DNA from: Clostridiaceae bacterium
GTDB taxonomy: Bacteria > Bacillota > Clostridia > Saccharofermentanales > DTU023
Assembly: GCA_012518795.1 (NCBI GenBank)
Contig: JAAYRL010000029.1
Coordinates: forward strand, 20,607 to 84,606
Reading direction: 5' to 3'
DNA: 64,000 nt
Part shown: positions 2 through 63,321 of the stretch, one piece after another
How the letters are laid out: each line of letters opens with the position of its first letter
How positions within the stretch are numbered: position 1 is the first letter of the stretch
Notes under the pieces: model-generated
Database searches by the model: none
Told to the model about the DNA's origin: nothing
The model's input: only the letters and a program-made list of their open reading frames with translations
Position numbers and translations under genes: made by a program

Positions 2-2641
2 ATTGCCCAAAGAGGTTCTTGGGAAATCAGATATGAAAGAGTAAACCCGGAGCAAGCTGCCTCAATGCTTGAATCACCTGATATCAAGAAATATGTTTCA
101 AGTCAGGAAATCGGTTATGCCAAGATAGAAAGCGAGAATCCATATAAGCCGTATCTTTATATCATGGGTGTCAGCTCTGACTTTACGGATATCGTTCCGT
201 TGTATTTAACTGAAGGTAAAATGCCTAGTGAGCCGAATGAAATTATTTTACCGCAACATTTTTTAGACAGCAGGCTAGAAAAATTTGAAATTGGCGATCA
301 GTTAAATCTGGAGGTAGGAAAACGATTTTTGCTCGACGATAGATTGGATTATACAGGTAATGCAGGTAGTGAAATTGTAAACGAAGAACCAGTAGATTAC
401 TCACAAGAATTATCCCAGGATGATTCGTATTTTTTAGATGAAGAAAACCCGACTGAAGAATTAAGAGATACAGAAAGCAAAACTTATACAATAACCGGAT
501 TTTTTAAACGCTACGGTTTAGAAAATTATAGTGCACCGGGTTATACCGCGATAACGGCAATCGATCAAACTGCTGAATCTAATTTAAATAGCTATTATCT
601 GGAATTTAATAATCCAAAACAAGTTTTTGAGTTTCAGAAAAAATATCCGGTTGAAGGAACTTCTGAAGTACATAATGAATTATTAAGATATTATGGGCTT
701 AGCAGAAATGATAATTTTAATGCCACGCTTTTATCTTTAACCATTATTTTCTTAGCAATGATTCTAATCAGTTCGATTGTATTAATTAACAATGCCTTTA
801 CCATTTCTTTAGCTGAAAGAACCAAACAGTTCGGCTTATTATCCTCGATCGGTGCCAGTAAAAAACAATTGAGGCGGACAGTTTTAACTGAAGCAATGAT
901 GATTAGTTTAATCGGTATTCCGTTAGGTATATTAGGTGGATTGTTAGGTATAAAGCTAACATTGATGGTAGTTAGCGGGCTTATAAAAGACATGATTACA
1001 TCTTCAGTTGTTTCTAATGTTGGTTTAGAGCTGATAATATCAAGTAAAGCTATTATAGCGTCAGTGATAATTGCTTTATTTACAGTTTTGATTTCGGCTT
1101 GGATTCCGGCAAAACGCGCTTCACGTATCACGGTAATGGATACTATCCGTCAAACTCAAGATATAGTTGCTAAACCGGTAAAAGTTTCAAAAGTAACTTA
1201 CAAATTGTTCGGCTTGCCGGGCTATTTAGCTACCAAGTATTTCAAGCGCAGCCGAAAAAAATATCGTTCAACGATTATCAGTTTGAGCTTGAGTATTTTG
1301 CTGTTCATTTCAGCTTATACTTTCACTTCAATGATGACAGATTCGATTGAAAATATTTATTCAACTAAAGTTTCGGATTTGGAATATTATTGCAGGCCGG
1401 AAGCAGAAGATGATAGTGAAATTATAGTAGAGTTAAATACAATGCATAATCGAATCAAGGATTTAGATCATGTAACCTCGGTTAATTATACTGCCTCATT
1501 GATGCAAAATTATGTGGTGAATAAGGATAATTTAACATCTGAATATATCGAATATATACTTCAGGATCCGAATACAATGTATTATTTATACCAAATCAAG
1601 GATGGTCAACAAGAAAAATATTTGCTTTCTATTAATACCGTGTTTATAGAAGATGACATTTTTGCTGAGATGTTAGAACAGTTTAATATAGATTTGACTG
1701 AATATTTGAGTTCAACTGAATTGTTGCCGATTGTTAAAAACAATGCTTTTATATTTGATATGGCAGCTAGAAAGTATGTCACGTACGATGTCTTTAACAC
1801 AAGTAAAAAAAGTAAAATTGAAATTGAACTCGTGAATTTGCAAGATATTCCGGATAAATATTTGAGTGAAGTTATTAGCGATGAAGACTCCACAGCTGAT
1901 TCTATATTTGTTTTTAGAAATTATGCTGAAGATACAATACAAGAAGTACCTTTATCAGAAGCTTTTGAGTCAAAACAAATGATTGAAGCGGAATATTTTA
2001 CAGATAAAATGCCGAGTTTTCTCGATAATAGATCCGATATAACGCTGCTTTTCCCAATCAGTAAAATGGCCGATTTAGCAGTAGATTCGAGTTTATTCAG
2101 TATCAGTTTTCATATCAATTCAGATAATCATCAACTGACGGAAAATGCTTTAGCCCAATATAATGCTGAATTGGCAAATAGAGGTGACTATGTAAATCAT
2201 GTTGCATATCGTCAAAATAATAAGAATTTAGTAACGATAGTAAATATATTCTGTTACGGTTTTATCGTTTTGATTTCATTAATTGCTTTGACTAATGTGT
2301 TTAATACGATAACGACCAATATCAATTTGAGAACACGGGATTTCGCAATGTTGAAAAGTGTCGGCATGTCAAATAAAGGCATCCGTAAAATGATGATTTA
2401 TGAATGTCTGCTATATGGAACAAGATCACTACTGTGGGGGTTACCACTGTCACTCGGAGTTTCTTATTTGATTTACCGGGCAATTGATCGCAGTGTAGAA
2501 CAATCCTATACGATACCGTGGATAGCAATAGCAATCGTCTGTATTTCAGTGTTCCTGTTTGTTGCAATCAGCATGATTTATGCCTTACGCCAATTCAACA
2601 AAAAGAACATTCTCGAATCTTTAAAAAATGAAAACGATTGA
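2..2641 (+). CDS. FtsX-family ABC transporter permease, large double-FtsX-domain type; 5' end runs off the window
   Basis: The frame is open from nt 2 into the listed ATG at 65 (IAQRGSWEIRYERVNPEQAAS precedes MLESPD), so the gene is truncated by the window edge. Two FtsX signature blocks are present (ERTKQFGLLSSIGASKKQL and RTRDFAMLKSVGMSNKGI). Each sits in a cluster of hydrophobic helices, and a large soluble domain separates the two. Confidence 0.75.
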   Translation: MAQRGSWEIRYERVNPEQAASMLESPDIKKYVSSQEIGYAKIESENPYKPYLYIMGVSSDFTDIVPLYLTEGKMPSEPNEIILPQHFLDSRLEKFEIGDQLNLEVGKRFLLDDRLDYTGNAGSEIVNEEPVDYSQELSQDDSYFLDEENPTEELRDTESKTYTITGFFKRYGLENYSAPGYTAITAIDQTAESNLNSYYLEFNNPKQVFEFQKKYPVEGTSEVHNELLRYYGLSRNDNFNATLLSLTIIFLAMILISSIVLINNAFTISLAERTKQFGLLSSIGASKKQLRRTVLTEAMMISLIGIPLGILGGLLGIKLTLMVVSGLIKDMITSSVVSNVGLELIISSKAIIASVIIALFTVLISAWIPAKRASRITVMDTIRQTQDIVAKPVKVSKVTYKLFGLPGYLATKYFKRSRKKYRSTIISLSLSILLFISAYTFTSMMTDSIENIYSTKVSDLEYYCRPEAEDDSEIIVELNTMHNRIKDLDHVTSVNYTASLMQNYVVNKDNLTSEYIEYILQDPNTMYYLYQIKDGQQEKYLLSINTVFIEDDIFAEMLEQFNIDLTEYLSSTELLPIVKNNAFIFDMAARKYVTYDVFNTSKKSKIEIELVNLQDIPDKYLSEVISDEDSTADSIFVFRNYAEDTIQEVPLSEAFESKQMIEAEYFTDKMPSFLDNRSDITLLFPISKMADLAVDSSLFSISFHINSDNHQLTENALAQYNAELANRGDYVNHVAYRQNNKNLVTIVNIFCYGFIVLISLIALTNVFNTITTNINLRTRDFAMLKSVGMSNKGIRKMMIYECLLYGTRSLLWGLPLSLGVSYLIYRAIDRSVEQSYTIPWIAIAIVCISVFLFVAISMIYALRQFNKKNILESLKNEND

Positions 2642-2659: not shown

Positions 2660-2992
2660 GTGCACACTTTTTAAGCTTAGGCGACAATCTGACGGTTCAA
2701 CCTTAAATAGTGTGCAGGTTCTTTAATAAAACCGGTTTTTTCGGGCCATATGTGCACACTTTTTAAGCTTAGACTGCAATCTGACGGTTCAACCTTAAAT
2801 AGTGTGCAGGTTCTTTAATAAAACCGGTTTTTTCGGGCCATATGTGCACACTTTTTAAGGTTAGACTGGATTTCTCCGGTATAGGCTTAAATAGTGTGCA
2901 TGCCCTTTAATAAAACCGACTTTTCTGAGTCAAATGTGCACACTTTTTAAGCTTAGGCGGTAATCTGACGGTTCAACCTTAAATAGTGTGCA
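2660..2992 (+). repeat. Array A: 4 tandem copies (92-bp period) of a ~57-nt hairpin element with arms GTGCACACTTTTTAAG / CTTAAATAGTGTGCA
   Basis: GTGCACAC starts at 2660, 2752, 2844 and 2936, an exact 92-bp spacing. The arms are invariant and the 26-nt interiors differ between copies. The 35-nt linkers (ggttctttaataaaaccggttttttcgggccatat) are repeated. The array fills the gap between convergent genes. Confidence 0.9.
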
Positions 2993-3012: not shown

Positions 3013-4245
3013 CTAATAATCAACTTCAAACTCTGTAGGTAAGGGATTATCATGCATATATTTGAATACGCCGCAAATTATTTGAGCGGCTTCTTCGATT
3101 AAAGCATCGTCTTGAGTAGCAGTATAGCTTGTTCTTAACAAACATTTGCCATCGGCAACTGCCGGCGGTAATACCGGATTAACATAAACTCCTGCTTCAA
3201 GCAGTAGTTTTGCTGCATACAGAGTTTGAGCTACAGTTCCTGTTATTAATGGAATAATTGGAATAATATCGTTATTACTGTCATGTACTTCAACATAGGG
3301 ACATTCTTTCAGCAATGCTCGCATTTTTGCTGTGATTTGGTGAATACGTGTAACTCTTTCCGGTTCAGAACGCAAGATACGCAAAGCTTCATGAGCTGCC
3401 GCAACCTGTCCGGGAGGAATTGAAGCACTGAAAATAAACGGTCTGGCAATATGTTTAATATAATTGATTACTCTTTCTTCGCCGGCAATACATCCACCGA
3501 GTGAAGCATAGCTTTTGGAGAAAGTATTCATGATTAAATCGACTTCATCTTCTAAGTCGAAATATTCAGCCGTACCACGGCCGTGTTTGCCCAAAACACC
3601 GAGTCCGTGGGCATCATCAACCATGATTCTGGCTTTGTATTTTTTAGCTAATTCGACTATCTTTGGAAGATTGCAAATTTCACCTTCCATACTAAATACT
3701 CCGTCAGTAACAATTAAAATACCACCGGATGTTGCTTTCTCAGAACAGCGAATCAATAATTTTTCTAAAGCATCCATATCGTTATGGGCATATTTGTAGG
3801 TTTTCGCAAAACTTAATCTAGTCCCATCAACGATACTGGCATGATTCAAGTCATCTGAGAGAATGAAATCATTCCTACCGGCAAGTGCAGAAATAACAGA
3901 AAGATTGGTTTGAAAACCGGTAGAAAAACTTAAACATGCCTCTTTCTGCAAGAATTCAGCTTGTTCACGTTCTAAATCACCATGCAATTTTAAAGTGCCG
4001 TTTAAAAATCTTGAACCTGAACAACCGCTGCCATAATGCTCAATGGCATCTTGAGCGGCTTTTTTTACGCGAGGATCGCCGGTTAAACCTAAATAATTGT
4101 TTGATCCCAGCATGATGGTCCGACGACCATCCATTTCCACTATATTATCTTGTTGGGTTGTTAATTCATGGAAATAGGGATAAACACCCATTTCTTTTGC
4201 TTGATCGACGACATAATAGTCATAACATTTTTGAAAAATATCCAT
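3013..4245 (-). CDS. PLP-dependent alpha-oxoamine synthase, serine palmitoyltransferase-like
   Basis: 410 aa. Motifs GSGCSGSRFLNGT, NHASIVDG, DDAHGLG and TFSKS (PLP lysine). By eye, end-to-end similarity is closer to bacterial Spt (Sphingomonas/Sphingobacterium/Bacteroides type) than to BioF or Kbl. SD-like gagg lies upstream of the ATG. Confidence 0.7.
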   Translation of the reverse strand: MDIFQKCYDYYVVDQAKEMGVYPYFHELTTQQDNIVEMDGRRTIMLGSNNYLGLTGDPRVKKAAQDAIEHYGSGCSGSRFLNGTLKLHGDLEREQAEFLQKEACLSFSTGFQTNLSVISALAGRNDFILSDDLNHASIVDGTRLSFAKTYKYAHNDMDALEKLLIRCSEKATSGGILIVTDGVFSMEGEICNLPKIVELAKKYKARIMVDDAHGLGVLGKHGRGTAEYFDLEDEVDLIMNTFSKSYASLGGCIAGEERVINYIKHIARPFIFSASIPPGQVAAAHEALRILRSEPERVTRIHQITAKMRALLKECPYVEVHDSNNDIIPIIPLITGTVAQTLYAAKLLLEAGVYVNPVLPPAVADGKCLLRTSYTATQDDALIEEAAQIICGVFKYMHDNPLPTEFEVDY

Positions 4246-5461: not shown

Positions 5462-6865
5462 TTAATCTTTCAAATCGGCAATTTCGCCGAGATCGGGCAG
5501 CCAAACGTCAGAACCATCAATAAAAACATCGAGATTATCTTCTCTGGCAGCGGTTTGACCTGCAATAGTGCCAGGAATAGTGCCATCCAATTGACCACGG
5601 ATACTTTCGGCACGCAAAAGACAGAAATCACAAAATGTTTGAACACCGATTTTAAAATCTTCAAAAGAACAAAAAGCGGTTGGATCCTTTTGAACATAAG
5701 GGGAGATCAAGGCAATTGTTTCAGTAACTTTCAATGAGAAATAATCTGATTCGAAATATTCACGAATCAAATAATCAAAATTTTCTTTATATTGGGCAAA
5801 ATAATCCGGATTTTTCATCAGATTATGATACAGAGGACGTTTGAACATAATTTCTCCAGAAGCGGGCGTAAAAATCGGATGATTGATATAGAGTTCGGCA
5901 TCGTTGATTGGTTCCGGCATACCGAGCGAATAAGTTCCGAATGCCAGATTATAATCCCACGGCAGCATGCTGATAATTCCGTTTTCTTCATAGAGAAAAT
6001 AGTTATGTGCGTTTTTACCTAAATAACCATCAAGATTTACAACAAAAACCTGTACCGGAAAGAATTTTAAGACAGAATTAACGTTTACCGCATCTGTTAT
6101 ATTTTCTCCGGTAGATAAAACCTGCAAAGCTCGGATTAACCTTTTTTTATCCTGTTCAGTCGGATTAAATTTTGCTTTGCGGAAAATATTATCATAACTT
6201 TCCGGATTGTCGTCAATATACCTTAACGCAACATCTGCATTTTCAGCATCGATATTTTTGTAGGCCGGCTTATAGAGCTGACCATGATTAACACCGAAAT
6301 TTCTTCTGGCAAAACCTTGTTCCGGTTCTTCAATTGCCAGATAAAGTCCCCAAGCCTGATCATTAATTGTTAGCCAAACATAGCTGGTCAGAGGAGAAGG
6401 AACATCCATAAATGCCATCATGTCATAGGTAATATAAGATTTTAAATAACTGTTATCCTGAAATGAAGAATCTAGGGAGAATTTGTCTAAACCGTAATAA
6501 CTGTTGGTTACATAATGGTCAAATTCGATTTTGAAACTATAGCGTTCGGAGCCATATCTATGTGTTAGACGTAAAGAATTATTGCCTTTTGTTCTAAAAC
6601 CGACATTCTCGAAATACTCACCGTCGATTTCAATATCCGCAAGTTTATATAACTCTGCTCGCGGATCGGCAAGAATTTCATCCCATTGTTCACAGTAAAT
6701 GTTTATATTATGAACACGACTATCATCAAACAAGCGATGCTCATAGCCGGGATTTAGTCCGGCAGGAAGAATCCCCAAATTTCCGTTCATGAATAAAATG
6801 GTAAAGAGGGAAGCAACAATTAGAATTGTAATGATTATTTTGTCGATATGTTTATGTTTTAACAT
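5462..6865 (-). CDS. CotH-family protein (atypical kinase fold), N-terminal membrane anchor or signal
   Basis: 467 aa. An N-terminal hydrophobic helix (IIITILIVASLFTILFM) is followed by CotH-like blocks (FRTKGNNSL, YSFKIEFD, GLDKFSLDS, GQLYKP, NYFLYEENG..LPWDYNLAFG). Confidence 0.75.
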   Translation of the reverse strand: MLKHKHIDKIIITILIVASLFTILFMNGNLGILPAGLNPGYEHRLFDDSRVHNINIYCEQWDEILADPRAELYKLADIEIDGEYFENVGFRTKGNNSLRLTHRYGSERYSFKIEFDHYVTNSYYGLDKFSLDSSFQDNSYLKSYITYDMMAFMDVPSPLTSYVWLTINDQAWGLYLAIEEPEQGFARRNFGVNHGQLYKPAYKNIDAENADVALRYIDDNPESYDNIFRKAKFNPTEQDKKRLIRALQVLSTGENITDAVNVNSVLKFFPVQVFVVNLDGYLGKNAHNYFLYEENGIISMLPWDYNLAFGTYSLGMPEPINDAELYINHPIFTPASGEIMFKRPLYHNLMKNPDYFAQYKENFDYLIREYFESDYFSLKVTETIALISPYVQKDPTAFCSFEDFKIGVQTFCDFCLLRAESIRGQLDGTIPGTIAGQTAAREDNLDVFIDGSDVWLPDLGEIADLKD

Positions 6866-6942: not shown

Positions 6943-7626
6943 TTAACTCATATAATCGCCGTTGTAGGAAACCATCACAGTGTGATTGACACCTTTAATC
7001 GCAGCCAATTCATTAATAAATGAACTGTCGGCTGATTTCAATCTGACCTCATAATTCAGTTCAATCTGTTCGGGCATAATTGTTTTACTCTTAAGTGAAT
7101 AACGCTTGACCGAATTGATGATATGGCTGAGAATTTCTTTTTCAACATCTTCATCAATGCAATGTACAACTAGTATATAAGGTTGTTCATGAGTTTTTGT
7201 ATTGGCAAAAATCAGCATTATTATTCCAATGAAAAAACTGCCGAACAAGGCAAGAGGAATTAAGCCTGCAGCTAGTACGATACCGACGGCAATGCTCCAA
7301 AATAAAAAAGCAATGTCGGATGGTTCTTTGATTGCAGTTCTGAAACGCACGATTGAAAGCGCACCGACCATACCGAGTGATAGAACAATATTACTGGTTA
7401 CTGCCAAAATCAAGAGTGCGGTAATCATGCTGAGAGCGATCAAAGTGATTCCAAAGCTGGCAGAATACATTACTCCTGAATATGTTTTTTTATAAATAAA
7501 AAAGATAAATATGCCGAGTACAAATGAGAGTAGCAATGTAATCAACATATCCATGAGCGGAACTGCGTTGATATTTTCTAAAAAACTTGATTTGAAAATG
7601 TCCTGAAAGGTTATGGTCATATACAT
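6943..7626 (-). CDS. DUF4956-type integral membrane protein
   Basis: 227 aa with about 4-5 TM helices. It has the block LSLGMVGALSIVRFRTAIKEPSDIAFLFWSIAVGI that I associate with DUF4956, and a soluble C-terminal domain. A good SD (aggaga) lies 8 nt upstream of the start. Confidence 0.65.
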   Translation of the reverse strand: MYMTITFQDIFKSSFLENINAVPLMDMLITLLLSFVLGIFIFFIYKKTYSGVMYSASFGITLIALSMITALLILAVTSNIVLSLGMVGALSIVRFRTAIKEPSDIAFLFWSIAVGIVLAAGLIPLALFGSFFIGIIMLIFANTKTHEQPYILVVHCIDEDVEKEILSHIINSVKRYSLKSKTIMPEQIELNYEVRLKSADSSFINELAAIKGVNHTVMVSYNGDYMS

Positions 7627-8346: not shown

Positions 8347-8455
8347 TTAAAAATATTTCCGGATGATTCAAAATAGTTTTTGTTTTATTTGTTCTTAGAT
8401 CAGTTTTAATTTAGATTTTTTCAGATAGTGATTATTAATTAGTGATTATATAATC

Positions 8456-9316
8456 CTAATCATCATAGTCCGAATCCTCATAATCTGAATTATCTGCTAT
8501 GGGAGCAGCAGTCGGTGCAGCTGTCGGAGCATAATCCGTTTCATCATAATCGGTGTAATCTTCAGTCGTAGCAGCTGTCGGAGCGTAATCTGTCTCATCA
8601 TAATCAGTATCATCTACTGTCGGATCGTAATCTGTTTCATCATAATCGGTGTCATCTACTGTTGGGGCAGTAGTTGGATCATAATCTGTTTCATCATAGT
8701 CCGTTTGATCTTTGGTAGTTGGTACAGTAATTGTTATAGCATTGCTGTCATCTTTATTGTCTTTTTTACTATCTTTATTGTCTTTATGATTATTATCTTT
8801 ACTTTCTTTATCATTATTATCTTTATTGTTAGTGTCAAGTTCTACATCAAGATTTAATTCACTAACTTTTTCTTCGACAGCTTTTCCGATGTTAACGATA
8901 AAATCTTCATTCGGCAAGTAAGAACCTTCCTTTAATTCTAAAGTTAGAGTTTTAGCCTGGCTGCCGACTTCATGAACAAAATATCCGGCAGTATTGATTT
9001 TATCAACTAATTCTTGAAGAACGACAGTTGAATCTTTGCCGATATAATTATCATAACCTTTTACAAGATTTGTACCATCTTTGTTTGTACCACGTACATC
9101 GGTAACCTTACCATTTTTATCATATTCAATTTCAATTTTCGGATTTATTGAAAGTACGATTACACCTCTTTCAGAATCAGTATCTATTTCTTCTAATTTA
9201 GTATTTGACTTTGTTTGGCTACCGCAACTTGTGAGTAAAAGTACCAATAATAACGCTGTGAGGGAAAGTGCCAATACTATCGAAATGATTCCTAATAAAT
9301 TTAATTTTTTATTCAT
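8456..9316 (-). CDS. Lipoprotein with lysine/aspartate-rich linker and C-terminal acidic Asp/Tyr/Thr repeat tail
   Basis: 286 aa. Signal peptide plus lipobox (LLLTSCGS). The linker reads NNKDNNDKESKDNNHKDNKDSKKDNKDD. It is followed by about 8 copies of (T/S)DYDETDYD(P/A)T-like repeats running to the C-terminus. Strong SD aaggag. Confidence 0.7.
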   Translation of the reverse strand: MNKKLNLLGIISIVLALSLTALLLVLLLTSCGSQTKSNTKLEEIDTDSERGVIVLSINPKIEIEYDKNGKVTDVRGTNKDGTNLVKGYDNYIGKDSTVVLQELVDKINTAGYFVHEVGSQAKTLTLELKEGSYLPNEDFIVNIGKAVEEKVSELNLDVELDTNNKDNNDKESKDNNHKDNKDSKKDNKDDSNAITITVPTTKDQTDYDETDYDPTTAPTVDDTDYDETDYDPTVDDTDYDETDYAPTAATTEDYTDYDETDYAPTAAPTAAPIADNSDYEDSDYDD

Positions 9317-17437: not shown

Positions 17438-17565
17438 TTCTTATCTAGAGTGGTGGAGGGAACGGCCCTGTGAAACCCGGCAACCCTAAGAGGGTGCCAA
17501 TTCCGGCAGGTTATACCTGAGAGATGAGTTCAATAAAGCTTCTCCGGGTGAGAGGCTTTTTTTAT
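17438..17565 (+). promoter_or_regulatory. SAM-I (S-box) riboswitch with intrinsic terminator, leader of metK
   Basis: TTCTTATCTAGAGTGGTGGAGGGAACGGCCCTGTGAAACCCGGCAACC...GGTGCCAATTCCGGCAGG...GAGAGATGAG matches the S-box core. The terminator AGCUUCUC-cggg-GAGAGGCU plus a U run lies at 17537-17563. Confidence 0.9.
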
Positions 17566-17620
17566 AACTAAGTTAAAAGAAATTATAAGAAATGCCAAAA
17601 TTGAAGAAAGGTTGATTAAT

Positions 17621-18811
17621 ATGACAAGAAAAATGGTTTTTTCTTCAGAATCAGTTACTGAAGGACATCCGGATAAAGTGTGTGATCAGATTTCCGATGC
17701 GATTTTGGATGCAGCTTTAACTGATGATCCGAATGCTCGAGTTGCCTGTGAAGTAATGGTCAGTACCGGTTTAGTATTTGTTACCGGAGAAATTACAACT
17801 ACTTCATATATTGATATTCCCCAAGTAGTGAGAAAAACAATTCGGGAAATCGGTTATACAGATCACCGATTAGGTTTTGATGCTGATTCATGTGCCGTGC
17901 TGACTTCAATTGATGAACAATCACCGGATATTGCCCAAGGAGTTGAGCAAGGATATGAAAAGCGCATGGGTGAAATGGTTGATGAATTATCAGGTGGTGC
18001 CGGCGATCAAGGAATTATGTTCGGTTTTGCTAACAAAGATACGCCGGAATTGATGCCTTTGCCGATTTCATTAGCACATAAACTGGCTAAACAATTAGCT
18101 GTTGCCAGAAAAAGCGGACAAGCAAAGACTTTTTTACCGGATGGTAAATCTCAAGTCACTATTGAATATCAAGATGATCGACCTGTTCATATTGATACGG
18201 TAGTAATCTCAACTCAACATACAGAATCAAGCTGTTTGGCGGAAGTTGAACAAGAAGTTTTAGAATATGTTTTGAAACCTGTTTTACCGGCAAACTTATA
18301 CGATGAAAAAACCAGAATTCTGATTAATCCGACAGGACGTTTTGTAATAGGCGGTCCGGAAGGTGATACCGGGGTAACCGGTAGAAAAATTGTGGTTGAC
18401 ACGTATGGCGGATTCGGCAGACACGGTGGAGGGGCACTTTCCGGTAAAGACCCGACAAAAGTTGATCGATCTGCAACTTATGCTGCCCGTTATGTGGCAA
18501 AGAACATTGTTGCAGCAGATTTGGCTGATTCCTGTGAAGTACAGCTTGCTTATGCTATCGGTGTTGCAAAACCGGTTTCGATTTTTGTTGATACTTTCGG
18601 CACATCCAAGATTGCAGAGCAGGATTTGGAAAAAATTGTCCGGAATAATTTTGATTTAAGACCACAAGCCATCATTAAAGATTTTGATTTGTTAAAACCT
18701 ATATATAAACAAACAGCAGCATATGGTCATTTGGGGCGTACGGACATTGATTTGCCTTGGGAAAAAACTGATAAAGTTGATCTGCTGAAAGCTGCTGTAC
18801 AAAAACTCTGA
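17621..18811 (+). CDS. metK: S-adenosylmethionine synthetase
   Basis: [24 protein letters not shown] and the other MetK blocks are present. I chose the ATG at 17621 (SD aaagg 9 nt upstream) rather than the listed TTG at 17612. Confidence 0.95.
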
Positions 18812-30394: not shown

Positions 30395-30413
30395 GAATAA
30401 TCCGGAGATTTAT

Positions 30414-30467
30414 AGAGATAGTAGAGATAGTATAGATGGTATAGATGGTATAGATGGTAGAGATGGT
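30414..30467 (+). repeat. 9-bp tandem repeat x6 (AGAGATAGT x2, ATAGATGGT x3, AGAGATGGT) in the hisA-hisF spacer
   Basis: Read directly from the sequence. The period is exactly 9. The repeat is in frame with hisF and has no stop between 30345 and 30498. Confidence 0.9.
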
Positions 30468-30497
30468 AGAAGACAAGAGAGTAATAAAGATAATAGT

Positions 30498-41860: not shown

Positions 41861-42781
41861 TTATTCAGCTTTGATATACTTATCAATGATTTCTTGCAGT
41901 TTACCACTTTCTTCAAGAGCTGCCAAAGCTTCGTTCACTTCTTCCAGAAGAGCATCATTGGTTTTGGTTAAAGCGATTGCATAATCTTCAACTGCATAGT
42001 CAGTTTCGAGGACTTTCAAATTATCATTTGCTGCAGCAAAACTTTTTGCCGGTTCATTATCAATGATAACTGCATCAACTTTGCCTGCGTTGAGTGCAAC
42101 AACAGCATCAGCACCTTTATCAAAAGATTGAACATTCTCTTCACCAAAATCATCCTGAGCATAAAAGTCACCGGTTGTACCGAATTGAGTTCCTATTTTT
42201 TTGTCTGTGAGATCATCCGGACCTTCAATGTCGGAATCCAGAGTTACAATAATTGATTGAATACCGGTAGCATATGAATCTGAAAAATTTACACTTTCTA
42301 AACGCTCTTCTGTTACTGTCATGCCGGCAATTCCACCGTCAACTTTTCCGCTTTCGATTGAGGCGATGATATTAGCAAATTCCATGTCGTGGATTTTCAG
42401 TTCATAGCCTAAATAATCGGCAACTGCTTGAGCGATTTCAGGGTCAATACCGACAATTTCTTCACCTTCATAAAATTCATATGGCGGGAATGCAGCATTG
42501 GTACCCAGATCAAGTACCCCGTCTTCCAATGCTTTGCCGGTTGAGGCATCAGCGGGTTCTTCGTCTGCTTCTGTTTCTTCTTTAGCTTCTGTTGTTTCTT
42601 CTTTAGCTTCTGTTGTTTCTTCTTTAGCTTCTGTTTTTTCTTCTTTAGCTTCAGTTTCTTCTTCTTTAGCTTCAGTTTCTTTTGCCGTATCTTTCTTGCT
42701 ACCACAGGCAGCAACACTCAGCATTAGCAAAATTGCTAAAAGTACTGATAAAATTGATTTTTTGTTAATTGTTTTTTTCAT
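41861..42781 (-). CDS. Amino-acid ABC transporter substrate-binding lipoprotein with acidic 7-aa repeat linker
   Basis: Lipobox LSVAACGS. It is followed by (T/E)TEAKEE x ~6, encoded by 21-bp tandem repeats at about 42573-42690, and then a family-3 SBP domain. The ATG at 42781 (GGAG 5 nt upstream) is preferred over the listed TTG at 42796. Confidence 0.85.
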   Translation of the reverse strand: MKKTINKKSILSVLLAILLMLSVAACGSKKDTAKETEAKEEETEAKEEKTEAKEETTEAKEETTEAKEETEADEEPADASTGKALEDGVLDLGTNAAFPPYEFYEGEEIVGIDPEIAQAVADYLGYELKIHDMEFANIIASIESGKVDGGIAGMTVTEERLESVNFSDSYATGIQSIIVTLDSDIEGPDDLTDKKIGTQFGTTGDFYAQDDFGEENVQSFDKGADAVVALNAGKVDAVIIDNEPAKSFAAANDNLKVLETDYAVEDYAIALTKTNDALLEEVNEALAALEESGKLQEIIDKYIKAE

Positions 42782-55356: not shown

Positions 55357-55540
55357 CTCATAGTAAATGATTTACTGATTAAAATTATTCCCGGTAAATG
55401 AATTGCTAATTAAAAATATCCTTAGTAAATGAATTGCTAATAAAACTATCCTTAGTAAATAAATTGCTGATAAAAACTATCCTTAGTAAATGAATTGCTA
55501 ATTTACACAGTACTCAGCAAATGAGTTATTAAGTAAAGGA
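55357..55540 (+). repeat. Six tandem ~31-bp repeats (core AGTAAATGAATTGCTAA) filling the dapA-dapB spacer up to the dapB RBS
   Basis: Core starts lie at about 55363, 55394, 55425, 55455, 55486 and 55517 (spacing 31, 31, 30, 31, 31). The outer copies are more diverged. The last copy runs into the SD aaagga. Confidence 0.85.
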
Positions 55541-56386: not shown

Positions 56387-57361
56387 ATGACGAAAATTAA
56401 AATAGGTATTGTAGGTTATGGTAATTTAGGTCGTGGTATTGAAACGGCTTTAACAAACAGTTCCGACATGGAGCTGTTTGCTATTTTTACGCGACGTGAT
56501 CCGTTAACGCTGGCTTCGACTTCACGAGTGGAATCCTATGATAGTCTGATTAATTTCAAAAATGAAATTGATGTTTTGATTTTAGCCGGCGGTTCACAAA
56601 AAGATATTCCGGAGCAAGGACCGGAGTTGGCAGCGAATTTTAATACGGTTGACTGTTTTGATACACATCCCGCAATTGCCGATTATTTTGCTGAAATGAA
56701 TCGGATAGCATTAAAGTACAAACATGTTTCAACTATTGCTATCGGATGGGATCCCGGACTTTTTTCTTTGCAAAGAATGCTTTCCGAGGCAATCTTACCG
56801 GCTGGCGAAACTTATACTTTTTGGGGAGAAGGTCTTAGTCAAGGCCACAGTGATGCTGTTCGCAGAGTACCCGGTGTGAAACACGGAGTACAATATACAA
56901 TTCCCGATCAGGCAATGATTTCTGATATTAAAGCAGGCAAAACAGTTAACTATACTTCTGCTAAAGCTCATAAAAGAGTTGTTTATGTTGTGGTCGAACC
57001 GGATGCTGATCAAAAAGAAATTGCGAATCAAATTAAGAATATGCCGGATTATTTTGCGCCTTACCAAACCGAAGTACACTTTATTTCTCAAGCTGAATTT
57101 TTGGAAAATCATCAAGGCATGCCGCATGGCGGTACAGTTATCAGACAAGGTGAAACTTCTCCCGGAACCAAAGCTGTTTTTGAATTTAATTTAAAGTTGG
57201 AGAGTAATCCGCAATATACTGCTGCAATAAGTGTAGCTTTTGCCAGAGCAACCTATAAATTATACAATGTAGAACAGTATGGTGCGAAAACAATTTTTGA
57301 CATTCCGCTCGGCTTGTTGTCAAATAGAGACTCAGAAGATTTGTTACATAATATAATTTGA
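56387..57361 (+). CDS. ddh: meso-Diaminopimelate D-dehydrogenase
   Basis: 324 aa. Near-colinear with Corynebacterium Ddh blocks (IVGYGNLGR, GWDPGLFS, FWG.GLSQGHSDA.RR.PGV, MPDYF, GMPHGG). Confidence 0.9.
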   Translation: MTKIKIGIVGYGNLGRGIETALTNSSDMELFAIFTRRDPLTLASTSRVESYDSLINFKNEIDVLILAGGSQKDIPEQGPELAANFNTVDCFDTHPAIADYFAEMNRIALKYKHVSTIAIGWDPGLFSLQRMLSEAILPAGETYTFWGEGLSQGHSDAVRRVPGVKHGVQYTIPDQAMISDIKAGKTVNYTSAKAHKRVVYVVVEPDADQKEIANQIKNMPDYFAPYQTEVHFISQAEFLENHQGMPHGGTVIRQGETSPGTKAVFEFNLKLESNPQYTAAISVAFARATYKLYNVEQYGAKTIFDIPLGLLSNRDSEDLLHNII

Positions 57362-57497
57362 TTGCTGTAAATTGATTGCTGTAAATTGCATAATTTTTTT
57401 AAATGCTCATAATAGAAAAGATATAGTACAAAAACATAGAGGAAACGAGCTGTTAAAATCATTAATATTAATGTGAAAATCGATTAACTGTTAACAA

Positions 57498-57563
57498 GTG
57501 CGATGATATTATTCTAGGAAGTGCAATGATATTATTCTAGGATGATATTATTCTAGGAGGAGG
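57498..57563 (+). repeat. Three tandem copies of ATGATATTATTCTAGGA forming the RBS-proximal leader of glnN
   Basis: Copies lie at 57503-19, 57526-42 and 57543-58. The first two carry a GTGC(G/A) prefix. The last copy extends into the SD AGGAGGAGG, 7 nt before the ATG. Confidence 0.9.
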
Positions 57564-60308: not shown

Positions 60309-61559
60309 ATGAGAACTTTTCAGAAATCTTCAAAGCTGTTTAATGTAGCTTATGATGTAAGAGGTCCTGCGTTGGATGAAGCTATGCGTATGGAAAATGA
60401 AGGAATTGAAATTTTAAAATTAAACATCGGAAATCCGGGACCTTTCGGTTTTCAAGCACCACAAGAAGTTTTGAATGGTGTTACGGATGGCTTGAAAAAA
60501 GCTCAGGGTTACACCGATTCAAAAGGTTTATATGAAGCCAGAGAAGCAATTGCCAATTACCATTTGCAGATGGGTATTGAAGGAGTCACGCCTGATGATG
60601 TTTATACCGGCAATGGTGTTTCAGAATTAATTCAAATTTGCATGCAAGGTCTTTTGGAAGACGGTGATGAAATTTTAATTCCTGCACCTGATTATCCTTT
60701 ATGGACAGCGATGGCAACTTTAGCCGGTGGAACAGTCAGACATTATATTTGCGATGAAAAATCAAATTGGCAGCCGGATATTGATGATATGCGTTCTAAA
60801 ATAAATGATAAAACGAAAGCAATTGTCGTAATTAATCCGAATAATCCTACCGGTGTAGTTTATTCTGAAGAAATTTTGTTACAAATTGTTGAATTAGCTC
60901 GTGAGCATGAGCTGATCATTTTTTCAGATGAAATATATGATCGTCTGGTTATGGATGATATTAAATTTAAATCAATTGCTGCTTTAGCGCCTGATTTATT
61001 CTGTATTACACTAAATGGTCTTTCAAAATCTCATTTAATTGCAGGATTCCGTATCGGTTGGATGTGTCTTTCCGGTCCTAAGGTTGCTGTCAGAAGTTAT
61101 ATTGAAGGCTTGAATATGTTATCGTCAATGCGACTTTGTTCTAATGCTCCTGCCCAACTTGCCGTGTCGGCAGCTCTTAATTCAGTGGATGAAACCAAAG
61201 CGATGATCAGTCCGGGTGGCAGGGTATATGAACAAAGAGAAGCTGTATGTAATGCATTGGATAAAGTAGAAGGTTTGTCCTATGTTCGTCCGCAGGCAGC
61301 TTTTTATGTATTTCCTAAACTGGATATTGAGCGTTTTGGTATTACCAGTGATGAGAGATTTGTCTTTGATTTTTTAAGAGAACAACATGTTTTGCTGGTT
61401 AGAGGCGGTGGATTCCATTGGCCTGAACCGGATCATTTTCGTATAGTTTATCTGCCTGAAATAGAAATCTTGACAGAAGCTGTTAGCAGATTGGCAAAAT
61501 TTTTGAAAAACTACCGTCAAGATCATACAGACCAACATTTGATTTTTAAACATCAGTGA
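60309..61559 (+). CDS. Class I/II aminotransferase, AlaA/AlaC-like (probable glutamate-pyruvate aminotransferase)
   Basis: 416 aa, colinear with E. coli AlaA blocks (KSSKL.NV.YD.RGP, LKLNIGNP.PFGF, PDYPLWTA, NPNNPTG, GLSK...AGFR.GWM, SMRLC.N.PAQ). Confidence 0.8.
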   Translation: MRTFQKSSKLFNVAYDVRGPALDEAMRMENEGIEILKLNIGNPGPFGFQAPQEVLNGVTDGLKKAQGYTDSKGLYEAREAIANYHLQMGIEGVTPDDVYTGNGVSELIQICMQGLLEDGDEILIPAPDYPLWTAMATLAGGTVRHYICDEKSNWQPDIDDMRSKINDKTKAIVVINPNNPTGVVYSEEILLQIVELAREHELIIFSDEIYDRLVMDDIKFKSIAALAPDLFCITLNGLSKSHLIAGFRIGWMCLSGPKVAVRSYIEGLNMLSSMRLCSNAPAQLAVSAALNSVDETKAMISPGGRVYEQREAVCNALDKVEGLSYVRPQAAFYVFPKLDIERFGITSDERFVFDFLREQHVLLVRGGGFHWPEPDHFRIVYLPEIEILTEAVSRLAKFLKNYRQDHTDQHLIFKHQ

Positions 61560-61581
61560 CGGTAAATAACTTGGTAGTGAT

Positions 61582-61912
61582 GGCACACTATTTAAGGTCA
61601 TACAGACAAAATCCAGAATAAGCTTAGAAAGTGTGCATCTCCAGCTCGTAAACTCCGGTTTTAGATGATCCCATGCACACTATTTAAGGTCATACAGACA
61701 AAATACAGAATAAGCTTAAAAAGTGTGCAATCTGCCCGGAAAAACCAGGATTTTTTGAAAAAATTGCACACTATTTAAGGTCATACAGACAAAATACAGG
61801 ATAAGCTTAAAAAGTGTGCAAGTCTGACTTGGAAAGGCCGGTTTTATCAAAGAAATTGCACACTATTTAAGGTTGAACCGTAAAATCCCAGGATAACCTT
61901 AGAAAGTGTGCA
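61582..61912 (-). repeat. Array B: 4 tandem copies (92/91/92-bp period) of the array A hairpin family, on the opposite strand
   Basis: GCACACTATTTAAG starts at 61583, 61675, 61766 and 61858. The reverse complement of each unit reads TGCACACTTT(T/C)TAAG-26 nt-CTTAAATAGTGTGC. The linkers are homologous to those of array A. Confidence 0.9.
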
Positions 61913-61947
61913 AGTCCGATATAAAAAAAGCCGGTTTGTTTGAAGAA

Positions 61948-63321
61948 TTAGGTTCTTAAAGCTTCTAATGCTGATAATTTCATAGCACGTCGAGCGGGCA
62001 TGACGCCTGCCAGCATACCGATGATTGTTGCAAACCCGATTGCACCTGCAACCAACCAGAGCGGAATGATTGATAATGGACTTCCGTCTGCACCTACAGG
62101 ATATATTCCGAGTGCCTCCATACCTTGACCTGACGCATTGTTTAATATTGAGGAAACAATGAAACTCAAGCCGATTCCTAAAACACCGCCGATTAAACCG
62201 ATAAGACATGCTTCAGCTAAGAAGATGTTGCGAATATTCTTGAGACTACATCCCAAAACTTTGAAAATGCCGATTTCTTTTGTTCTTTCATAGACTGACA
62301 TCATCATGGTGTTGGCAATGCCGATTGCAGCAACGAAGAGTGAAATGCCGCCTATACCACCGAGAACCATTTGCTGATTAGCCGATTGCTGACGCATTGA
62401 ATCGATAAATTCAATATTTGAATCAACCTGAAAACCCATATCGCGGATTTGTTCCAGGACTTCTTTGGTATGTTCCAAATCGGTTGAGCCGACAATAATA
62501 CTATCATAGATGACTTCACCTACAGGTTTACCGCTTTTGGATTTCGGTTGACCGGGCCAGGCTTTACCTTTGAATGTTTGATTTAAGAAATCTTCCAGAT
62601 GTCCAATTTCAGTATAAGCAGAATACAAATTCGGTGACCATTGTTGTTCATCAGGTGAGCCCATGATTCCGTCGACATGCAACAGATGTTTTTTGGGCGC
62701 TGTACCTTCGCCGCCTTGAGCATTATAGTAAGCGTCCATATCCCAAGTTGCGAAACTAGGTTTATTAATTAAATCTACCTCTGCCGGTTCCCAATTATGA
62801 GAATTTGGATTATAGAATTGATAAGTAATATCTCTACCGATAACTAACGGTAAGTGGTCTTGTTTTTTTGTGAAATCCGGCAGTTCCCCTTCTATAATAT
62901 GGATTTTTTTCGTGGCAAGTGCGTCTGCAGTCATACCTTCAATATAAATATAATTTTCGTAAACACCTTGTTGAACACGAATTGAAATAGTGAGGACAGG
63001 AGATGCATATTTAACATTTGGCAGTTGTCTTATTTCGTTTACAGTTTCCATATTTAATTTCTTTTTACTGGCTTCAATTTGGCTGAAATTTCCGCTTGCA
63101 TCGATCATCATACCACCTTCATCATTTCTCACGTTAACGGTGGTCAAATCAGATGACTGATCGATCATTTTCATCATTGCTTCACTTTGTCCGATGCCAA
63201 TTGAAAGCATGGTCACGATTGATGCAGTACCAATAATGACTCCCAGCAGGGTTAATATAGAACGTAATTTACGACGCCATAAATTAGTTAGACTTAAACT
63301 AAGCAGATCATACCATTTCAT
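61948..63321 (-). CDS. FtsX-family ABC transporter permease (MacB-like: N-terminal TM, large extracytoplasmic domain, C-terminal FtsX domain)
   Basis: 457 aa. N-terminal LRRKLRSILTLLGVIIGTASIV. C-terminal ERTKEIGIFKVLGCSLKNI plus 3 TM helices. Confidence 0.8.
   Translation of the reverse strand: MKWYDLLSLSLTNLWRRKLRSILTLLGVIIGTASIVTMLSIGIGQSEAMMKMIDQSSDLTTVNVRNDEGGMMIDASGNFSQIEASKKKLNMETVNEIRQLPNVKYASPVLTISIRVQQGVYENYIYIEGMTADALATKKIHIIEGELPDFTKKQDHLPLVIGRDITYQFYNPNSHNWEPAEVDLINKPSFATWDMDAYYNAQGGEGTAPKKHLLHVDGIMGSPDEQQWSPNLYSAYTEIGHLEDFLNQTFKGKAWPGQPKSKSGKPVGEVIYDSIIVGSTDLEHTKEVLEQIRDMGFQVDSNIEFIDSMRQQSANQQMVLGGIGGISLFVAAIGIANTMMMSVYERTKEIGIFKVLGCSLKNIRNIFLAEACLIGLIGGVLGIGLSFIVSSILNNASGQGMEALGIYPVGADGSPLSIIPLWLVAGAIGFATIIGMLAGVMPARRAMKLSALEALRT

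Follow-up and report, generated by a model that had tools for sequence, protein, structure and literature searches.

Within the window, i.e., the whole stretch of 64,000 nucleotides that was analysed, a gene encoding a class I/II aminotransferase (60309..61559, plus strand) converges on a gene encoding a MacB-type FtsX permease of 457 aa (61948..63321, minus strand; FtsX E=2e-18 and MacB_PCD). The gap between both genes contains array B (61583..61911, minus strand), which lies downstream of the permease gene, is co-directional with it and is composed of four 54-nt palindromic cores with linkers of 37-38 nt in between. Counted from the FtsX stop codon, the cores are located at 61858-61911, 61766-61819, 61675-61728 and 61583-61636, all on the minus strand, and the core starts at 61583, 61675, 61766 and 61858 confirm the four units with 92/91/92-nt spacing described in an earlier note on this DNA. 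The stop codon of the aminotransferase gene is 23 nt away from the last core, while the leader from the FtsX stop codon to the first core (61912..61947, minus strand) is linker-like and includes AAACCGGCTTTTTTT; in the orthologue of this leader at locus L005 a perfect hairpin AAACCGG-ATTTT-CCGGTTT is found in the equivalent place. Array A belongs to the same repeat family (2662..2991, plus strand; cores 2662-2715, 2754-2807, 2846-2899 and 2938-2991). It lies downstream of a gene for a double-FtsX permease (65..2641, plus strand; FtsX E=2e-37), which extends past the window start and encodes 930 aa at full length, and a further class I/II aminotransferase gene (3013..4245, minus strand), unrelated to the one at 60309-61559, converges on the array A gap. 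Tandem Repeats Finder reported a period of 92 with 3.6 copies for both stretches of the window, with 82% matches at 61583-61913 and 84% matches at 2658-2992.

As described earlier, both FtsX gaps are convergent and filled by the arrays, the upstream genes of both carry FtsX domains, and each array starts soon after the FtsX stop codon, the first arm being found at 20 nt in array A and at 36 nt in array B. It had also been stated that the arrays point in the same direction relative to the FtsX gene. This is correct for both window loci; the polarity had been read from a T:T mismatch in the arms, which is present in 79 of 104 distinct cores and is not a family-wide marker. The GC skew has one sign throughout the window, and therefore arrays A and B run in opposite directions on a single replichore, so that no polarity with respect to replication is seen. 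A segmental duplication of an FtsX-aminotransferase pair was rejected, because the gene pairs are unrelated beyond shared domains: the aminotransferases are unrelated and the FtsX proteins share the domain only. PLP-dependent aminotransferase-fold genes adjoin arrays at three distinct loci of the family, i.e., the two window class I/II enzymes and IscS at the isc locus; at 3 of 33 loci, a comparison with no genome background behind it, this looks like a coincidence.

Each unit consists of the 54-nt core, in which 14-nt arms (GCACACTTTTTAAG on the left and CTTAAATAGTGTGC on the right) enclose a partly paired 26-nt interior, and of the 37-38-nt linker with the semi-conserved motif TAAAACCGG..TTT. 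The 14-nt arm pattern has 16 matches in the window, every one inside arrays A and B, at a chance expectation of 1.26, and a count of 16 was reached in 0 of 100 shuffles. Read on the minus strand, array B indeed represents the array A unit, as shown by a gapless column-by-column alignment with invariant arms and an interior that is always 26 nt long, and the interiors and linker motifs quoted in the earlier note are found in the sequence as written. The statement that the arms are conserved and the interiors variable is correct as well and extends to the whole family. Upon folding, the array B cores yield -20 to -22 kcal/mol each on both strands, and the family cores form predicted hairpins of about -18 to -22 kcal/mol each with stability alike on both strands. 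It had been implied that the interiors co-vary to preserve this structure. Covariation, however, is not above that of shuffles: among the 104 distinct cores 79.6% of the cells are paired versus 80.2% in shuffles, which also show the larger number of compensatory changes. The hairpin potential therefore stems from the conserved palindromic sequence rather than from compensatory evolution. Mutual information in the linkers carries a lineage signal only, and a strand test based on G-U versus C-A mismatches was contradictory, with positions 10 and 11 speaking for one strand, and positions 16 and 17 for its complement.

A known RNA family was rejected: Rfam 15 gave no match to the arrays at the gathering score, and at E<=1 only plant miRNA-precursor models, far below threshold, were returned. 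Neither strand has a promoter-like or terminator-like site that recurs from unit to unit, a window-wide terminator scan gave counts near those of shuffles, no U-tract follows the core hairpins, and gaps A and B with their arrays contain no canonical terminator. The 92-nt period excludes a repeating reading frame. Judged by these sequence features, the unit is non-coding and devoid of a promoter or terminator of its own.

The distribution of the family was analysed by scanning bacterial and archaeal genomes, one per species, for the exact two-arm pattern, which resulted in 12 stretches from four MAGs only, two named "Clostridiaceae bacterium", one Saccharofermentanales and one labelled Bacteroidales. 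With a slightly degenerate arm pattern, 31 contigs were found in JGI metagenomes, all in four consecutively numbered related samples. Viral contigs gave no match to the repeat and a phage origin was rejected. The census is based on exact arm patterns on short contigs rather than on complete genomes, and its 43 loci (45 arrays) were reduced to 33 distinct loci after flank comparison. The 45 arrays contain 158 units, with 1-7 units per array. Unit polarity was assigned by profile scores; the arrays are arranged head-to-tail, with units of apparently opposite or ambiguous orientation only in L025 and L028/L038, and their period is nearly always 91-92 nt, the exceptions being two loci at 71 and one at 102. 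The assemblies containing the window sequence are biogas-fermenter metagenomes. Other assemblies of the window species are 100% identical over 12-22 kb and therefore carry no information on copy-number variation between strains. At L002, L005 and L053 the flanks match the window with 83-86% identity. Given the few genomes and samples and the related flanks, the family is therefore confined to few related species. It is a previously undescribed repeat family, and its hosts are a narrow group of uncultured Clostridia (Saccharofermentanales) from biogas reactors. Two loci, L009 and L012, lie in the Bacteroidales-labelled MAG AS23ysBPME_368, which is most likely a binning error and not horizontal transfer; the sequences of L009 and of metagenome contig L016 are identical. 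Contigs starting or ending within arrays include L004, L001, L019, L039, L041 and L051, and the end of L004 (6253-6700) and the start of L001 (9-62), which belong to one MAG, appear to flank one and the same array, in an iscS-array-iscU locus. As short-read assembly breaks at the repeat, the copy numbers of arrays at contig ends are lower bounds.

The flanking ORFs of the loci were identified with Pfam. FtsX neighbours are found among the 33 distinct loci only at the two window loci and their orthologues (L002; L005/L032), and the proposal of the earlier note that the element belongs to the 3' UTRs of FtsX exporter mRNAs is not supported, an FtsX neighbour being present at 0 of the 31 loci outside the window pair. 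These 31 loci have diverse, mostly housekeeping neighbours. In two species the array is located within the iscS/iscU operon. Further neighbours are gcvPB and gap, ftsY and ylxM, ychF and a comM-like gene, the genes of IleRS, TyrRS, PheT and RNase Y (rny), hfq, genes for thioredoxin-reductase-like flavoproteins, ApbE, amidohydrolase, PAP2, flavodoxin, an LPXTG surface protein and an IS transposase, and others. That both window arrays lie next to FtsX genes is a coincidence.

Among the distinct loci with both flanks resolved, 9 of 17 gaps are convergent, 7 tandem and 1 divergent. Convergent gaps are enriched compared to 3 of 52 gaps in the rest of the window (Fisher p=6e-5, with the 64-kb window as the only background), also if the two discovery loci are left out (p=6e-4), and when counting Pfam-supported or long ORFs only, 8 of 14 gaps are convergent with unchanged significance. 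This supports the other suggestion made earlier, namely that convergent gaps are tolerated landing sites, so that one half of the earlier interpretation is supported and the exporter 3' UTR element is not. No orientation bias was observed: 15 arrays have the same polarity as the gene on their 5' side and 10 the opposite polarity (p=0.42), and between co-directional neighbours 2 arrays are sense and 5 antisense. Overall, the family is strongly over-represented behind genes, at their 3' ends, with convergent gaps in the lead. The distance from the array to adjacent stop codons is typically 10-60 nt. Arrays are also found within operons and in one divergent promoter region, in either orientation.

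The arrays are not fixed at the FtsX gaps either. Close relatives show 4, 1 or 0 units or a different repeat, a variability that the earlier note had itself named as speaking against an association with these genes. In gap B, between the MacB-type FtsX gene and the aminotransferase gene, the window species has 4 units and L005 (flanks 83% identical) has 4 units with interiors differing from those of the window. L053 and L055 (flanks ~85% identical) have a different hairpin repeat, also with a 92-nt period, and the MAG of L053 holds arrays of the GCACAC family at other loci. In L044-L047 (FtsX 68% identical) gap B contains 0 units, an extra gene and ordinary terminator hairpins. In gap A, 4 units of the window species are opposed to 1 unit in L002 and L062 and 0 units in L060, where a long hairpin of a third type (CTGCTCAC...TTCTGAGCAG, -35 kcal/mol) and the insertion of a GGDEF gene are seen; in L063 (FtsX 51% identical) a 69-nt gap with a single canonical bidirectional terminator is found. 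Orthologous array sites occur in species with 80-87% identical flanks, and the unit counts of orthologous pairs are 4 versus 1, at least 6 versus 5, and 7 versus 5.

The second 92-nt hairpin repeat is located in L052/L053 at 6464-6810 and in L055 at about 6470-6560, in the orthologues of the window gap 61560-61947. It has 21-nt arms (GTGCCAAAAAAGACGCTCCTG / CAGGAACGTAATTTTTGACAC) and a 25-nt linker, is preceded by 3-4 copies of a linker-like 21-nt repeat, and its RNA has a predicted stability of -29.1 kcal/mol on the aminotransferase-sense strand versus -15.4 kcal/mol on the other strand. Homology to the GCACAC family was rejected, since there is no profile match and both share the GTGC start, ATAAAACC within the linker and the period only. 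The third hairpin-type repeat, CTGCTCAC-TTTT...AAATTCTGAGCAG, is found in L060 at 5790-5870, in L010 at about 7090-7160 and in L035 at 1058, and furthermore at array 3' flanks in L001 (131), L010 (6571), L013 (958), L026 (182) and L034 (1824). Its module GCACAGCTCGAAATTCTGAG or the full hairpin adjoins arrays at ~5 of 33 loci and stands alone at the gap A orthologue in L060; it is absent from both window arrays and from the window as a whole. This third hairpin could be a terminal module similar to boxA/boxC; the complementarity (duplex) test for this and for the nesting of arrays within the hairpin was equivocal.

Further repeats of other types were observed. Between a dapA-like and a dapB-like gene (window 55361-55503) lies a tandem repeat TAGTAAATGAATTGCTAAT... 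with 31/61-nt period and 4.6/2.3 copies, which is also present in L048 and L049, and in related genomes many more tandem repeats, of 40-88-nt period, lie between genes, as in L012 (1533-1889), L029 (1-370), L023 (510-674), L033 (3119-3308) and L048 (3-156 and 6987-7105). This suggests that the lineage tends generally to accumulate minisatellite-like repeats. Perfect short tandem repeats at 57354-57388 and 57496-57558 of the window (14-nt x2.5; 23-nt x2; 16-nt x2.1) lie directly upstream of a type III glutamine synthetase gene (start 57571) and may represent a regulatory leader. In-coding tandem repeats at 8426-8829, 30413-30470 and 42557-42677, with periods of 15-96, 9 and 21 nt, respectively, probably encode repetitive low-complexity protein segments. 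The window also contains a SAM (S-box) riboswitch (17438-17559, 81 bits) with a terminator-like hairpin (17535-17559) upstream of the S-adenosylmethionine synthetase gene (17612-18808).

Interiors of the GCACAC family are 83% identical within arrays and 59% between arrays, and linkers 61% and 41%, respectively. Except at the isc locus, orthologous arrays in sister species resemble each other no more than array pairs picked at random. As the likeness within arrays exceeds that between orthologues, local homogenisation and rapid turnover of the units are indicated; degenerate or truncated units are found at the array edges. The arms are 94% identical across all arrays and 93-100% identical between orthologous arrays, compared to 80-87% for the flanking genes, with interiors and linkers drifting. 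Decay would be expected of a repeat at orthologous sites if it were purely neutral or parasitic, and the fact that the arms are kept argues for sequence-specific selection, be it through a binding factor or through a function for the host. Position 15/40 of the core is almost never paired, and the substitutions tolerated differ between the two arms. Together with the T:T mismatch, these arm features suggest recognition of the sequence by some factor. In the window and in about 330 kb of loci, neither a transposase, a matching IS end, a target-site duplication nor a solo arm was found, and the sequence thus points to no mechanism of spreading. No candidate gene for a binding factor was found near any locus within the 64-kb window and about 330 kb of related loci.

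From these results, we consider it probable that the arrays are loci of a new lineage-restricted small interspersed repeat similar to BOX and BIME elements, with copies that gene 3' ends tolerate and that multiply there in situ. According to this model the arrays would expand, contract and homogenise in situ via slipped-strand mispairing or unequal recombination, the seeding of new loci would be rare, and copies would survive downstream of coding regions, where the harm is least. Transcribed within the 3' end of either neighbour, a core would form a stem-loop of about -18 to -22 kcal/mol. As the cores fold on either strand, the array would probably act as an orientation-independent 3' structure, which may block 3'-5' exonucleases or pause and attenuate read-through between convergent genes, and it would take the place of the ordinary bidirectional intrinsic terminator of relatives. 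The effect of the arrays would thus most likely be that of an orientation-independent stem-loop array in 3' untranslated RNA.

The alternative that survives best, although unlikely, is that the arrays are a host-selected 3'-end module that terminates or insulates convergent transcription or stabilises the upstream mRNA, thereby replacing classical intrinsic terminators. The arrays fill convergent gaps almost wholly, 10-60 nt from both stop codons, and gaps A and B have no canonical terminator while repeat-free relatives have one there. In sister lineages three distinct hairpin-type repeats are found at the same two gaps, and since two unrelated hairpin repeats occupy one orthologous gap, a strong structure could be wanted there. 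The hairpins are stable on both strands, and orthologous positions are kept in species with 80-87% identical flanks. However, the hairpins have no U-tract, 0 to 7 units at orthologous sites are hard to square with a tuned function, and arrays also reside in operons and in the divergent promoter region, in either orientation. Moreover, a structural role leaves unaccounted for that it is the sequence of the arms, rather than their pairing, that is conserved.

The conserved arm sequence is what would be expected if the arms were recognition sites bound by a dedicated factor, either an enzyme resembling REP-associated transposases that acts on hairpin DNA or a protein binding DNA or RNA, with the units serving as its clustered sites or as a sponge. 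This explanation is less probable again, even though the arms are conserved above flanking coding DNA without covariation, carry the conserved T:T mismatch, an unpaired position 15/40 and asymmetric tolerated substitutions, and are embedded in units of fixed interior length (26 nt) and period (92 nt) with the conserved linker positions TAAAACC, TTT and G.TG. Against it stand the missing candidate gene by any locus in the 64-kb window and about 330 kb of related loci, and the absence of the GTAG/CGTC tag and of the inverted dimers of REP/RAYT systems (Di Nocera et al., 2013, PMC3733652). A sponge of the CsrA type is unlikely because conservation of the apical GGA motif is only partial and array A lacks it. 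It is doubtful whether a dedicated trans-acting protein recognises the arms, with their T:T mismatch and constant 26-nt spacing, and whether the arrays are maintained by or for it. In one form this would be a REP/RAYT-like hairpin system with a new Firmicute architecture of long cores and direct tandem arrays; in another it would be a selected insulator between convergent genes that displaces classical terminators. A selected terminator/insulator role or a dedicated arm-binding protein, both taken together, may be regarded as possible, though not as the expected outcome.

It is very improbable that the arrays consist of independent sRNA genes, with one sRNA per unit expressed from its own promoter and ended by its own terminator. 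Tandem sRNA gene arrays occur in other Firmicutes, and each unit has a stable hairpin and a semi-conserved linker, yet no recurrent promoter- or terminator-like site per unit was found on either strand, there is no Rfam match and no covariation, and the arrays have random polarity relative to their neighbours and sit in a tight fit between stop codons. A specific 3'-UTR element of FtsX/ABC exporter mRNAs, as suggested by the two window arrays behind FtsX genes in the same relative orientation and by units at the orthologous gaps of two other species, is refuted by the census within the sampled loci, with 0 of 31 other distinct loci at the 3' end of an FtsX or ABC permease gene, absent, single or replaced units at the FtsX gaps of sister lineages and no polarity bias.

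With the favoured reading of a tolerated interspersed repeat, a new small interspersed repeat family is documented in an uncultured biogas-reactor lineage, and the exporter-specific 3'-UTR device, an attractive but false lead, is removed. The arrays disrupt short-read assemblies and are usable as VNTR-like strain markers. Furthermore, the turnover of hairpin repeats is unusually active precisely where relatives retain bidirectional terminators. A selected terminator/insulator or an arm-binding protein are the only routes to more than an ordinary finding; if a binding factor or a termination role were true, the family would constitute a Firmicute counterpart of the REP/BIME story.

Compared to known repeat systems, a CRISPR array was ruled out, as all parts of the unit recur (interiors 83%, linkers 61%) and no cas genes are present in the flanks. 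Similar to MITEs, the family has 14-nt inverted terminal arms that are complementary bar the one T:T, and it is AT-rich, highly base-paired and intergenic. In contrast to MITEs, there are no solitary dispersed copies with clean ends, and the units always come with a linker and usually in arrays. No target-site duplication was found, the core-adjacent bases either extending the palindrome (AT...AT) or being linker, and the roughly 330 kb analysed, which comprised the IS beside L006, contained arm-like sequences only within the arrays. MIRUs are dispersed intergenic tandem repeats of 40-100 bp in mycobacteria that are also located in operons and vary in copy number between strains; they are non-palindromic, oriented with the operon and contain short ORFs overlapping the flanking genes. 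The repeats described here share with them the dispersed intergenic tandem arrangement and the variable copy number, but their 92-nt period is not a multiple of three, their orientation is random and their unit is palindromic.

REPs are imperfect palindromes of 20-40 bp with a GTAG or CGTC tag that form inverted dimers (Di Nocera et al., 2013, PMC3733652). Like REPs and BIMEs, the family is an extragenic palindrome that resides for the most part behind genes, where neighbouring ORFs converge or run the same way; it occurs in clusters, has conserved linker motifs and keeps its sequence beyond the needs of a hairpin, and an effect at the RNA level would likely be that of a 3' stem-loop. It differs in its core of 54 nt instead of 20-40 nt, in direct head-to-tail units instead of inverted dimers, in being AT-rich instead of GC-rich, and in its host, a Firmicute instead of Proteobacteria. 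A GTAG/CGTC tag adjoins the arms in 0 of 158 units, the arms beginning with (T)GCACAC and ending with GTGTGC(A), and neither the 64-kb window nor the flanks of the 33 loci yielded a RAYT (Y1 transposase) gene.

For BOX, RUP and SPRITE the excess in convergent gaps was read as tolerated insertion of parasitic repeats, and no association with gene function was found (Croucher et al., 2011, PMC3049150). From BOX elements (boxA-boxB(n)-boxC), which were compared by description and have unrelated hosts, the family differs in that distinct terminal modules are missing from most arrays, among them arrays A and B, that the repeated unit is a 54-nt palindrome plus linker (92 nt) instead of the 45-nt boxB, and that no IS with matching ends is known here. 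In common with BOX, it is a small interspersed repeat of a narrow lineage with extensive secondary structure (PMC3049150), and its internal module is repeated head-to-tail with a copy number that varies between orthologous sites. As in BOX, a different hairpin module flanks the array at some loci, the repeats are over-represented between convergent genes with no tie to the function of the neighbours, and about half of the sites are common to related genomes, implying slow turnover of the sites.
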